Shown here one piece after another: positions 47,951 to 51,697 of a stretch of 64,000 nt of DNA. Position numbers and translations under genes: made by a program. Below the pieces are notes generated by a model, which saw only the letters and a program-made list of their open reading frames with translations, did no database searches and was not told where the DNA came from. Positions within the stretch are counted from its first letter, which is position 1, and each line of letters starts with the position of its first letter. The stretch lies in the NCBI RefSeq assembly GCF_055900595.2, contig NZ_CM148325.1. One strand, 5' to 3'.

Positions 47951-50900
47951 GTGAAAATTAAAAAGATCAAAAAACTTTTTAAAAATCCCAAATCATTTAT
48001 TGCGGACTCTCGTTATTTTAATTTTATAAATAGTAAAAAAAAAGTTGATAATAAATTAGAAATAGGATTTATTGTAATTTCTCAGAACCATGATTTATCA
48101 AGATACTCAATAGATAGTATAATACAGGCAAACAATGCAGCATCAAAATCTTTCCCTTATATCGTTATACATGACTACGATGAAAAATGTGGTACTGAAA
48201 CTATACATACTATAGTTAAAAAACTTGATACACCATACATAAAAATCCTCTTTGATGGAGAAAAAATACACAGGGATTTTATTATTAAATTTTTAAATCA
48301 CAATATAGATCCTAACAATAATGATATAATATTACATGCATTTTCTACAAATTCAAATGTAAAACAGGTAGATGGTTTATTATCTAGTTCTAAAGATATA
48401 TCATTCAATAATCAGTTGTGGAAAGAACATGCGGTTTTGTTATTTTCTACGCTAATAATTAAATCTGACTTAATATTAAACACTAGTAAAATACTTCATC
48501 ACGGTGGAAGAATTATAGATTCGCTAAATGTGCTTCGTATTTTTAGAGAATGTGAGGAAATGGACTATGTTTTATATTTGAACGATATGTATTCTTTCAA
48601 TAGTGCCTCGCTGAAACTGGAGGAAAAGATAAAAGTATTGATGGAGGATGAGTTATTATTAAAAATAACATTTGCAGAAATCTTTGAACATGTAAGCTTG
48701 GGGGGGAGGAATGTTTTTTATAGGAAGACGTTGTTTTATTTCATACACAATATAGTTTTGTTCTTGCTAAAAAACAAAAAAACAGATGAGCGCCTCCATG
48801 AGGAAACAAAAACATTAATTAAAAACCAGTTAACAGATATAATAAGAATACTTGGAGTTGATATACTAAAGGGCTTTTCTGCAAAAAATTATAATCACGT
48901 TCACAAAATTGGATATTTAAAACTAATAGGAGTGAAAGCAGATAAAGATCTATGTTATATTGAAGATATAAATAGCGAGAATAAAGTTGTAAAAGTCAAA
49001 ATAGCATCACAAACAGATGCCTACCCACAGATATTACTTAATAAAGAGTATTTAATTCCTTTTACAGCCAAGGTTAAAGACTTAACAATTTTTGACGTTA
49101 ATTTCTCACACGAGATATATTTTTGGTTCTCTTATGATGCAATATCACAAGAACTTGTCATAAAAAAAGAAAATAATACTGAAATCCTCTCTGGTGGAAA
49201 ACATTATAAAAAAATAAAAATAGAAAACATAATAAAAAATTTTGAAAGAAGAGATTTAATTAACAGTTCATTACCTTTAATGTCAAAAATATTAAGATAT
49301 TTACACACTGTATCATTTTTTCAGAAGAAATTTCTAAATGCATGGGTTTTTATAGATAATGAAATAAGAGCAGATGATAATGCGGAGCATTTCTATCGAT
49401 ATATATCCCAAAAACATCCTGATATAAATATATACTTTCTTTTGAGCAAAAAATCTGTAGATTGGGAACGACTAAAAAAAGCTGGTTTTAAATTAGTTAA
49501 ATTTGGTGGCTTTTACCATCGCTTGCTACTGCTAAACGCTCGTTATCTGCTTTCCTCCCACGCTAATCCTGCAATTGTCAACTATTTACCTAAAAAATAT
49601 TATGCAGATCTTATGAAATACAAGTTTGTATTCCTTCAGCACGGTATAACGAAGGATGATCAATCAGAATGGTTAAATAGCCGCAAAATAGATTATTTGG
49701 TGACGGCTTCAAAATTTGAACATGATGATATTTCTCGAAGAGGTAGGTATAGATATACTACAAAAGAAGTCGTACTTACTGGTTTTCCTCGGTTTGATAA
49801 TTTATCAAATGTTGATACAAGAAATAATCAAATATTAATTATGCCAACATGGAGAAAAGAACTTGCAGGAGAATTGATGAAAAAAAGCAGTAAAAGAATA
49901 AAAAATAAAGATTTTGCTAATTCATTATTCTGTAAAATGTGGGGAGGAGTTTTAAGATCTGAGTCTTTATATAATGCTTATAAAAAGAAGGGGTATACAA
50001 TAATATTTTACCCTCACCCTAATCTTGCTGATTACATTAGTGACTTAAATATTCCAGATTACGTTAAAATTGGTAGTTTAGAGAATGAAAGTATCCAGAG
50101 TATTTTCAAAAAAACTAATTTGCTTATTACGGATTATTCATCGGTGGCGTTTGATATAGCGTATATGAAAACGCCAGTTATTTATTTTCAGTTCGATAGC
50201 GACACTTTTTTTTCAAATCATTCATATTCAAAAGGATATTTTGATTATAATGATTTTGGGTTTGGGCCTGTTGTAAAAAATATAAATGACTTATCTGAAC
50301 AACTAAATCTAATAGTTGATAATAACTGCAATCTTACTGATTTTTATATGTCACGTATAAAGTCATTTTTCCCATTTTCGGATAATAATAACTCATCTAG
50401 ATTATATAAAGTTTTGAGTGTTGGAGTAAATAAAAAACATGATTTGGAAACATTGTATAATTATTTGCTAATGTTCACTTCAATTATCGATATTGAAGGT
50501 ATAGCGCTAATGTTAAATAACTATAAGCAACAACTACAAAAAATATTATATAAAGAGGGTTGTGATATATGTGTGGTTATAAATTGCTTATATTTGATTG
50601 CTAATGTAATTGATGAGCCTAAATTAAATTTAGCCATAAGAAATTTACTAGATGGCGTGGAATTAACTAACGGGGCACTTAAAAAAAATCATTCTTTTGG
50701 AATGAATAATGGTGTCGATAGCCGTATATCATATATTGAAGATCAAATAGAAACATTATCAACAATTATTGATACTAATAGTAAACTGTTAAGACATCTA
50801 ATCGATCTTCACGCTTTTTTGACATTCTTTAAGAATGAAGAATATGTTCAAGCAGTATTTTCATTTAAACATTTGCAAAATAATCTTAAACTTAGAATAG

Positions 50901-51697
50901 ATGGGCGTATCGTTTATATATATGTTCTCTCGTTACTGAGAGATAGGCAAATCAAGGAGGCAATGGATATAGCAAAGAAACTATCACTAAGTGATGAAAA
51001 TAAAGAAGAACTATTAATTGAATTAGTAAGATTTGATAATGTAAAGAACATAAAATCGATTGATATTGATTTTCTTTTGCCTTCAAAGAATGATGAGACG
51101 CTATTAAAATTATATTATAATGTAAAGCAAAGCATCCCGGAAAACATCGTAAAGAGATATTCTCATATTGATGATATGCCCTATTTTGTTTTTGAGTTTT
51201 ATTTAGATGAGTTATTGTCAAAAAAAGAATTTGAAGGCTATTACGAGTACTTAAACAATTCAAAAAACAAAGTGCAATATCTTGACAATAACATTAATAA
51301 ATATAAATACATCAAGTGTATCTTTAATATACTCGGCCCTAATGCTTTTTATGAGGAATTATGTGAAGTATCTAAAGAGGATTGTCTACATAAATCCTTT
51401 AATTATTTGTTTTTAAATAATATAACTTCTGATGCGGGGCTTTTTCATAAAATAATAAAGACTTTAATAACTTTGGGGTTACATAATTTTTCTTGTTTGG
51501 AAGTTTACAATTACATACTGTACTTTTATAAGCAAGAGCGGCCTGATCTGGCTAAAGATGTCATGTATATCTTTTCTATTAAACAAAATGTTAAACAAAA
51601 TGAGCGATTTTATAATGATTCCAAAAACTGGAAAAGTCATGATGACTATGACACATTAGTTAAAGCGGTATCTGAGCTTGAAAATTCGATGAAATAA
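47951..51697 (+). CDS. Large multidomain capsule polymerase candidate with TagF-like (CDP-glycerol glycerophosphotransferase-family) core
   Basis: 1248 aa from GTG 47951. Central region carries TagF-family hallmarks FLQHGITKDD, ILIMPTWRKE (PTWR motif) and ITDYSSVAFDIAYMKTPVIYFQFD; C-terminal ~400 aa is helical/TPR-like, N-terminal ~450 aa unassigned. Confidence 0.75.
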   Translation: MKIKKIKKLFKNPKSFIADSRYFNFINSKKKVDNKLEIGFIVISQNHDLSRYSIDSIIQANNAASKSFPYIVIHDYDEKCGTETIHTIVKKLDTPYIKILFDGEKIHRDFIIKFLNHNIDPNNNDIILHAFSTNSNVKQVDGLLSSSKDISFNNQLWKEHAVLLFSTLIIKSDLILNTSKILHHGGRIIDSLNVLRIFRECEEMDYVLYLNDMYSFNSASLKLEEKIKVLMEDELLLKITFAEIFEHVSLGGRNVFYRKTLFYFIHNIVLFLLKNKKTDERLHEETKTLIKNQLTDIIRILGVDILKGFSAKNYNHVHKIGYLKLIGVKADKDLCYIEDINSENKVVKVKIASQTDAYPQILLNKEYLIPFTAKVKDLTIFDVNFSHEIYFWFSYDAISQELVIKKENNTEILSGGKHYKKIKIENIIKNFERRDLINSSLPLMSKILRYLHTVSFFQKKFLNAWVFIDNEIRADDNAEHFYRYISQKHPDINIYFLLSKKSVDWERLKKAGFKLVKFGGFYHRLLLLNARYLLSSHANPAIVNYLPKKYYADLMKYKFVFLQHGITKDDQSEWLNSRKIDYLVTASKFEHDDISRRGRYRYTTKEVVLTGFPRFDNLSNVDTRNNQILIMPTWRKELAGELMKKSSKRIKNKDFANSLFCKMWGGVLRSESLYNAYKKKGYTIIFYPHPNLADYISDLNIPDYVKIGSLENESIQSIFKKTNLLITDYSSVAFDIAYMKTPVIYFQFDSDTFFSNHSYSKGYFDYNDFGFGPVVKNINDLSEQLNLIVDNNCNLTDFYMSRIKSFFPFSDNNNSSRLYKVLSVGVNKKHDLETLYNYLLMFTSIIDIEGIALMLNNYKQQLQKILYKEGCDICVVINCLYLIANVIDEPKLNLAIRNLLDGVELTNGALKKNHSFGMNNGVDSRISYIEDQIETLSTIIDTNSKLLRHLIDLHAFLTFFKNEEYVQAVFSFKHLQNNLKLRIDGRIVYIYVLSLLRDRQIKEAMDIAKKLSLSDENKEELLIELVRFDNVKNIKSIDIDFLLPSKNDETLLKLYYNVKQSIPENIVKRYSHIDDMPYFVFEFYLDELLSKKEFEGYYEYLNNSKNKVQYLDNNINKYKYIKCIFNILGPNAFYEELCEVSKEDCLHKSFNYLFLNNITSDAGLFHKIIKTLITLGLHNFSCLEVYNYILYFYKQERPDLAKDVMYIFSIKQNVKQNERFYNDSKNWKSHDDYDTLVKAVSELENSMK

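Follow-up and report, generated by a model that had tools for sequence, protein, structure and literature searches.

TagF-like polymerases of group-2 capsules were described by Litschko et al. (2018; PMC5974469) as products of open reading frames (ORFs) longer than 2.5 kb, in which a TagF-like domain is combined with an N-terminal GT-A or a C-terminal GT-B glycosyltransferase (GT) domain, and most of them also carry a tetratricopeptide-repeat (TPR) domain of ~400 amino acids (aa). In that study the GT-A/TagF-like enzymes CslB, Cps12B, Cps1B and Ccs2 make oligosaccharide-phosphate polymers via hexose-1-phosphate transfer, and those of the TagF-like/GT-B kind, Cps3D and Cps7D, use CDP-glycerol as the donor and make teichoic-acid-like polymers. 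Here we analyze a stretch of 64,000 nucleotides (contig NZ_CM148325.1 of the RefSeq assembly GCF_055900595.2, which as a whole we call the window), and in particular a gene at positions 47951-51697 that encodes a protein of 1248 aa. This protein belongs to the TagF-like capsule polymerase family and has the GT-A/TagF-like/TPR architecture of Cps1B. We consider it likely that it is the chain-building enzyme of the Escherichia coli K52 group-2 capsule and takes galactose-1-phosphate (Gal-1-P) from UDP-galactose (UDP-Gal). The polymerase family, the catalogued locus and the RefSeq family name are already known, and the structure of the K52 polymer was reportedly published in 1985. What our analysis adds is modest, i.e. 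that the donor class can be predicted from motifs, layout and context, and that the GT-A domain looks inactivated.

The window holds an E. coli group-2 capsule locus, as seen from its flanks with gspC-M/yghD on one side and kpsS/kpsC/kpsU on the other. Over 12,039 bp, positions 46063-58100 share 99.975% identity with the K52 reference cluster, which a 2026 capsule-typing catalogue gives as NZ_LR025101.1:4230080-4251504. The ORF sizes also agree with the InterPro table of the catalogue, namely 525, 123, 248 and 829 aa for K52_7, K52_8, K52_9 and K52_10, 1248 aa with PF04464 for K52_12 and 330 aa for K52_13, and hence our gene is K52_12. It belongs to the serotype-specific region, lying between the kpsM-like and kpsT-like genes with kpsS/C/U/D/E near, and its ORF exceeds 2.5 kb. 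Thirty-five complete E. coli genomes carry the gene with 100% identity, among them an O15:H18 ST69 isolate and other human isolates. At 28% G+C, with the gsp genes at 56%, it has the composition that one would expect of an imported serotype-specific region.

The gene is one ORF of 3747 nucleotides (1248 aa and the stop codon) with a GTG start codon and a Shine-Dalgarno-like GAAGGTG sequence ahead of it. The RefSeq coding sequence has the same limits in the 100%-identical genomes and the N-terminus MKIKKIKKLFKNP is kept in the homologues, so the start codon is assigned correctly. RefSeq names the product, WP_000694256.1, a "CDP-glycerol glycerophosphotransferase family protein". The gene and its parts are as follows.

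47951..51697, + strand: whole gene, K52 capsule polymerase candidate K52_12, WP_000694256.1 (ORF list, RefSeq coding sequence, K52 cluster identity)
47951..48055, + strand: basic helical segment, aa 1-35 (MKIKKIKKLFKNPKSF...), conserved in K52-type and Cps1B-type polymerases (alignments; short helices of low pLDDT, the per-residue confidence of the model)
48056..48610, + strand: GT-A-fold domain, aa ~36-220, lacking the DDGS, DxD and ED motifs, a probable pseudo-glycosyltransferase
48611..49339, + strand: helical linker, aa ~221-330, beta-sandwich, aa ~331-423, and connecting helices to aa 463 (model, conservation, hhalign)
49340..50413, + strand: TagF-like phosphotransferase domain, aa 464-821, predicted hexose-1-phosphate (Gal-1-P) transferase (Pfam, TarL alignment, 16 homologues)
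49640..49642, + strand: codon of His564 (FLQ-H-GITKDD), the equivalent of TagF H444 and Cps1B H587, predicted catalytic base (invariant column, Cps1B peptide)
50015..50017, + strand: codon of His689 (IIFYP-H-PN), the equivalent of TagF H584 and Cps1B H717 (invariant column, alignment with FKMHPF of TarL, Cps1B peptide)
50414..51694, + strand: all-helical TPR-like solenoid, aa 822-1248

The phosphotransferase core is recognized by Pfam as Glyphos_transf (PF04464) at aa 464-821, with an E-value of 1.4e-40 that is far beyond chance and a match to positions 16-364 of the 367 in the model. A preliminary reading of the DNA without database searches (the sequence-only reading) had proposed such a core and quoted three motifs, all of which are found in the protein: FLQHGITKDD at aa 561-570, ILIMPTWRKE at aa 628-637 and ITDYSSVAFDIAYMKTPVIYFQFD at aa 726-749. 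We aligned 16 full- or near-full-length homologues (36-50% identity) from Aeromonas, Citrobacter, Enterobacter and another E. coli type, and residues 465-820 are near-invariant among them. H564 and H689 are conserved in 16 of 16; H564 lies in a QHG motif that corresponds to TagF H444, the catalytic base, and H689 aligns to the HP motif of TarL, whose structure is solved. The segments SSHANP, QHGITKDD, PTWR, HPN and ITDYSSVAFD are likewise all present and invariant. Other proteins with GT2 and PF04464 domains share 34-45% identity with the K52 polymerase over the TagF part. A sequence search of the PDB gave the C-terminal half of TarL as the sole match (E=1e-4 with the single sequence, 4e-10 with a profile), and the folds of the remaining regions were therefore taken from models. 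TagF of Staphylococcus epidermidis and TarL of S. aureus share with the K52 polymerase the PF04464 domain, the catalytic His pair and the donor-binding segment ITDYSS...D. Unlike it, they are Gram-positive wall teichoic acid enzymes with polyol-phosphate donors and without a GT-A or TPR domain, and the C-terminal half alone can be aligned between TarL/TagF and the K52 polymerase by sequence.

The sequences around the two histidines suggest the type of the donor. As far as is known, WHGTP is general in TagF/TarL enzymes, and the K52 polymerase does not have a WHGTP-type sequence at the catalytic base, reading FLQHGITKDD instead. The mutagenesis primers published for the characterized enzymes (PMC5974469), which cover short peptides, translate into LQ[H587]GITKDDLSQWF and VIFAP[H717]PNIEPYLNEFNIP for Cps1B, and TW[H612]GTPFKTLGRDME, i.e. 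TW[H]GTPFKTLG, for Cps7D. At the same two sites the K52 polymerase has FLQHGITKDDQSEWL and IIFYPHPNLADYISDLNIP, which are close to the Cps1B peptides and would therefore make it an enzyme of the Cps1B (hexose-phosphate) type rather than of the Cps7D (glycerol-phosphate) type. The 34-45% identity to GT2-TagF proteins over the TagF part agrees with this, as the solved polyol-phosphate enzymes can hardly be found by sequence. Cps1B of Actinobacillus pleuropneumoniae serotype 1 is in other respects also the closest of the characterized enzymes: it has the same domain order, almost the same length (1246 versus 1248 aa), a C-terminal TPR-like domain, near-identical sequence around both catalytic histidines and a gene in region 2 of a group-2 locus, and its TagF-like domain moves hexose-1-phosphate from a UDP-sugar. 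Cps1B itself was not among the distant matches, which held only close relatives such as the proteins labelled P0017 and P0038 (TEWVTFID[P/S]DDF), so that our comparison with Cps1B is through peptides and not over the full length. Cps3D and Cps7D (A. pleuropneumoniae serotypes 3 and 7; crystal structure 8QOY) differ from the K52 polymerase in having an N-terminal TPR domain and a C-terminal GT-B domain, a CDP-glycerol donor, a WHGTP-type motif and a poly(galactosyl-glycerol-phosphate) product. [quoted passage not shown] Pfam has no family for aa 1-463, in line with the sequence-only reading, which gave this region no function, and an NCBIfam scan assigned no family to the 1248-aa protein. A confident AlphaFold model of the N-terminal region, based on 14 sequences (pLDDT 82.8, predicted TM score 0.78), consists of an alpha/beta domain at aa ~36-220, a helical linker, a beta-sandwich at aa ~331-423 and connecting helices; comparison based on this model gives a confident GT-A fold for the alpha/beta domain. 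Homology to the GT-A and linker region of the Cps1B class extends over the N-terminal 438 aa, as a profile-profile comparison (hhalign) with the N-termini of five GT2-TagF proteins gave 98.2% probability and E=6e-14 over 426 columns. The linker region is strongly conserved from H266 on (HNIVLLLLKNKKADE, NYNHVHKIGY) and is common to Cps1B-type polymerases. When a profile of residues 1-470 was searched against 1.84 billion representative proteins, ~8 clusters had the complete region and ~35 more matches, most of ~1200-1400 aa, covered mainly positions 285-472. The basic segment at aa 1-35 might contact the membrane or a partner.

We then compared the catalytic motifs in a joint alignment of 13 K52-type and 14 GT2-TagF N-termini. 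In the K52-type sequences ~24 residues spanning the nucleotide-binding segment DDGSxD...NGGqAsARN are deleted, the essential DPDD motif has become x-x-G-[E/D] (FDGE in the K52 polymerase), and the invariant FED position, the usual region of the catalytic base, has no conserved acid. No column ahead of H266 is invariant in the 16-sequence alignment. Besides Met1 and K8, the 14-sequence alignment has S56, K98, G103, F110, I126, K148, K171 and K259 as invariant residues in positions 1-265; none of them is acidic, and they are mainly Lys, Gly and Ser. HDYDEK at aa 74-79, considered as a displaced DxD, was ruled out as it is conserved in no homologue. Cps1B has an active GT-A domain, in which D133xD135 is essential, and makes a disaccharide-phosphate repeat. 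The K52 polymerase, lacking DDGS, DxD and ED, appears to have no catalytically competent fused GT, and the backbone expected of it needs Gal-1-P transfer only. We conclude that the N-terminal domain is probably a degenerate GT-A domain, and that a classical second glycosyltransferase activity, which the sequence-only reading had left open as a glycosyl or acyl activity, is unlikely.

The K52 reference NZ_LR025101.1 (record positions 15790-19537) has one nucleotide more (TTT in place of TT) near position ~439 in the polymerase gene (~48389 in the window), and RefSeq splits the frameshifted gene there into ORFs of 147 and 1045 aa. The frameshift reflects either an error in sequencing or a GT-A-like domain that is cut short in nature; in the second case, and provided that the strain has a capsule, this domain is dispensable.

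The C-terminal tail is entirely helical in the structure model (24 helices and no strands), and its matches in structure comparison include Cps3D, which bears out the helical TPR-like C-terminus expected of a multidomain TagF-like enzyme. Its place at one terminus is that of the TPR domain in most TagF-like polymerases. Pfam matches no family at aa 822-1200. Taken together, the protein has the PF04464 domain, the catalytic His pair, a fused GT-A fold, a TPR-like end and a place in a group-2 locus, the features of TagF-like capsule polymerases.

No other enzyme of the locus seems suited to form phosphodiester bonds. Stealth domains (e.g. PF11380) have no Pfam match in the polymerase and are listed for none of the K52 ORFs, and no stealth, LicD, second PF04464 or other phosphotransferase was found in the locus. 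The K52 polymerase is thus, judging by sequence, the sole candidate phosphodiester-forming enzyme of its kps locus, and the polymerase role proposed in the sequence-only reading is supported by this and by its membership in a recognized Gram-negative group-2 family. The phosphodiester-linked capsule predicted there is also in agreement with the literature, as K52 is cited as a fructose-containing and phosphodiester-bridged capsule polymer. The family scan of the K52 locus found no match to CDP-alditol genes of the TagD, TarI/J or Bcs1 type; a 248-aa protein has a sub-threshold similarity to IspD (E=7e-4). Hofmann, Jann and Jann reportedly determined in 1985 that the K52 polymer repeats 3)-alpha-D-Galp-(1-phosphate, that O2 carries beta-D-fructofuranose and that O-acetyl/O-propionyl groups are present, and we know of no alditol in this polymer. 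Such a backbone needs a single type of bond, galactosyl-1-phosphate, and so would fit an enzyme with an intact TagF-like domain and a degenerate GT-A domain, just as the whole structure would fit a locus with an acyltransferase and no stealth-type enzyme.

The genes around the polymerase that bear on its donor and partners are listed below.

46063..46839, + strand: KpsM-like ABC-transporter permease, divergent (NCBIfam KpsM 189 bits against a cut-off of 300 bits; RefSeq)
46939..47931, + strand: 330-aa GT2-like glycosyltransferase K52_13, PF10111, with intact DVD and YEDFD (ORF list, RefSeq, catalogue)
51869..52549, + strand: KpsT-like ABC-transporter ATPase (family scan and RefSeq)
52769..55258, + strand: 829-aa acyltransferase K52_10, with a hexapeptide-repeat domain at aa ~94-251 and a ~580-aa region without assigned function (family scans, catalogue)
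55296..57968, + strand: three-gene module of a 248-aa BcbE-like protein with a nucleotidyltransferase fold, a 123-aa haloacid dehalogenase (HAD) "capsule biosynthesis phosphatase" (TIGR01689) and a 525-aa nucleotidyltransferase and kinase-like protein
59541..63572, - strand: kpsS, kpsC and kpsU of region 1, for synthesis of the conserved glycolipid primer of beta-linked 3-deoxy-D-manno-oct-2-ulosonic acid (beta-Kdo) (ORFs; RefSeq, identical locus)

The 330-aa GT is found directly upstream of the polymerase in E. coli K52, in Aeromonas bivalvium (8971-9963) and in Enterobacter sp. NFR05 (8967-9959), and it keeps DVD and YEDFD at 60% identity to the Enterobacter protein. It may work on the beta-Kdo linker as a transition transferase, or stand in, in trans, for the presumably dead GT-A domain. 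Relatives of 61-63% identity are also found in the K116 and K7 clusters, and the K7 polymer to our knowledge has no phosphate.

Both the Aeromonas and the Enterobacter homologues of the polymerase lie in kps-type loci, right after the PF10111 protein, and neither locus has the three-gene module or CDP-alditol synthesis genes. The Enterobacter serotype region consists only of the polymerase, the 330-aa GT and one unassigned ORF of 300 aa. It follows that the polymerase would take a housekeeping nucleotide sugar as its donor. E. coli K116_8 (1249 aa) and the Aeromonas, Citrobacter and Enterobacter orthologues resemble the K52 polymerase over the full length with 36-50% identity, and share with it the degenerate GT-A domain, the neighboring 330-aa GT and the kps-type locus. 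Unlike the K52 locus, theirs carry other accessory genes and not the three-gene module.

The three-gene module might supply or attach the fructose branch. It recurs with ~67% DNA identity in another E. coli K-type (11761-14422), beside a 1157-aa HAD-type polymerase, and since it accompanies a different polymerase there we regard it as a portable accessory unit; it resembles a unit for sugar activation or branch addition, the sugar perhaps being fructose. A search for DNA like kfoE of K4, which could have linked the module to fructosylation, identified no K4 locus. We also considered the module as a CDP-alditol pathway serving the polymerase and rejected this as the main reading, as the homologues work without the module and the module accompanies an unrelated polymerase.

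The 829-aa acyltransferase is a candidate for adding the O-acetyl/O-propionyl groups of K52. It is 69% identical to a protein of the Aeromonas locus (13970-16465), whereas the polymerases of the two loci are 42% identical, and this difference suggests mosaic exchange. The K116 homologue of this acyltransferase has only 262 aa.

Based on these results we propose that KpsC/S would build the beta-Kdo glycolipid primer, to which a first acceptor sugar would be added, possibly by the 330-aa GT. The TagF-like domain most likely uses UDP-Gal and, with release of UMP, adds Gal-1-P at O3 of the terminal galactose, and repetition of this step would give the phosphodiester-linked backbone. In it His564 would serve as the base, and the donor pyrophosphate would be held with the help of His689. 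The degenerate GT-A-like and beta-sandwich modules are probably a scaffold or bind the chain or a partner, and the TPR-like tail probably serves in oligomerization, processivity or primer recognition, as in Cps1B and Cps3D/Cps7D. The fructose branch would come from the three-gene module and/or the 330-aa GT, the acyl groups from the 829-aa acyltransferase, and KpsM/T/E/D would export the finished polymer. The folds of the domains, the conserved motifs, the family and the identity of the locus are observed, and the donor, the linkage, the parts played by the two histidines, the inactivity of the GT-A-like domain and the tasks of the neighboring genes are inferred from them.

Homopolymeric glycosyl-1-phosphate backbones have so far been attributed to stealth enzymes. 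The stealth hexose-1-phosphate transferases (CsaB and CsxA of Neisseria meningitidis, K51_9 of E. coli K51) are like the K52 polymerase in that the predicted product is a homopolymeric glycosyl-1-phosphate backbone made from a UDP-sugar, but their fold and family are unrelated to it. We tentatively suggest, as an idea that seems slightly more apt to fail than to hold, that the K52 polymerase is the first TagF-like polymerase to build such a backbone alone, with the GT-A domain inactivated and kept as a lysine-rich scaffold for the anionic chain or a partner, and with the 330-aa GT working in trans, e.g. priming on the beta-Kdo linker or adding the branch. If so, it would be a TagF-like homopolymerase that makes a glycosyl-phosphate chain and has the 330-aa GT as its constant partner.

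Several points weigh against Gal-1-P transfer by a single active domain. The donor typing by the His motifs draws on two characterized enzymes known through primer sequences, and the K52 repeat unit is given here as reported by Hofmann, Jann and Jann, whose 1985 paper is cited among those on phosphodiester-bridged capsules. Our literature search found no biochemical study of the K52 enzyme, and TagF and K52 occurred together only in the capsule catalogue. The nucleotidyltransferase, kinase and phosphatase genes of the locus could in principle make an unusual activated donor. The strand registers of the GT-A domain disagree between hhalign and MAFFT, with the catalytic motifs missing under both. 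In addition, the conserved pair G103-[E/D]105 and K98 in the GT-A-like domain, together with the 330-aa GT that is invariably found next to the gene, make a non-canonical activity conceivable, or a backbone more complex than assumed.

One rival reading is that the N-terminal domain is active in a non-canonical way, e.g. as a beta-fructofuranosyltransferase on O2 of galactose, which would make the K52 polymerase bifunctional like Cps1B. The GT-A fold is confident, the domain is homologous to the active GT-A domains of GT2-TagF polymerases, some constraint is seen on K98, G103, E/D105, S56, K148 and K171, and every characterized member of the family has an active GT domain (PMC5974469). The domain has nevertheless lost DDGS by deletion, FED altogether and DPDD to x-x-G-[E/D], and shows no invariant column before H266 among the 16 sequences. 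It is equally found in homologues whose loci lack the putative fructose module, it is always accompanied by a separate 330-aa GT with intact DVD/ED, and the frameshift of the K52 reference falls inside it, although this may be a sequencing error. We consider such an activity unlikely.

A wall-teichoic-acid-like capsule, in which the TagF-like domain transfers glycerol- or ribitol-phosphate from a CDP-alditol, is what the sequence-only reading had favored when it called the polymer teichoic-acid-like and named CDP-glycerol and CDP-ribitol as donors. The Pfam and RefSeq family name, CDP-glycerol glycerophosphotransferase, points that way, and the locus does encode three proteins that might produce an activated donor, namely one with a nucleotidyltransferase fold (its weak IspD/cytidylyltransferase similarity lies far under the cut-off), one HAD phosphatase and one that is kinase-like. 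Against these stand the first His motif, QHGITKDD as in Cps1B and not WHGTP as in Cps7D, with the second also matching Cps1B; the GT-A/TagF-like layout, which is linked to hexose-phosphate polymers; the Enterobacter and Aeromonas loci, which have neither the module nor CDP-alditol genes; and K52 itself, described as fructose-containing and phosphodiester-bridged. We find an alditol-phosphate polymer highly improbable, and the sugar-phosphate alternative, which the same reading had also offered, appears to be the right one given the Cps1B-like motifs and the poly(galactose-1-phosphate) chemistry that K52 is said to have. There is only a slim chance, in our view, that the protein is a priming or "transition" phosphotransferase or adds a single unit, with another enzyme elongating the chain. 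PF04464 members such as CpsA and TagB do act as primers, and the constant pairing with the 330-aa GT might mean that two enzymes alternate. However, an elongating enzyme would have to be sought in a locus without stealth, LicD or a second PF04464 protein, and in Enterobacter in a region 2 of three ORFs, one being the unassigned 300-aa ORF; the size, the TPR tail and the Cps1B-type homology of the protein all fit a polymerase. Our preferred reading remains a polymerase that transfers Gal-1-P from UDP-Gal.

K52 is one of the commonest capsules of E. coli from European bloodstream infections and ranks with the most invasive E. coli capsule types. Knowing the backbone enzyme, and UDP-galactose as the donor to try, makes the cell-free synthesis of K52 antigen for glycoconjugate vaccines and diagnostics directly testable, and such synthesis has already been successful with related polymerases. 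The K52 polymerase also points to a target for drugs or for phage resistance, and its degenerate GT-A domain offers a small but useful case for the evolution of multi-enzyme capsule polymerases.

Some further observations concern the arrangement of the locus. The genes kpsM and kpsT, which are normally adjacent, are split here by two biosynthesis genes, a rearrangement that the 2026 catalogue already records for K52. Between the serotype genes and kpsS, at ~58186-59295, lies a frameshifted remnant of an IS3-family transposase, which is a pseudogene in the identical genomes. An ORF of 1525 aa upstream of the gsp operon (28509-33086, + strand) may, by its position, encode the YghJ/SslE lipoprotein.

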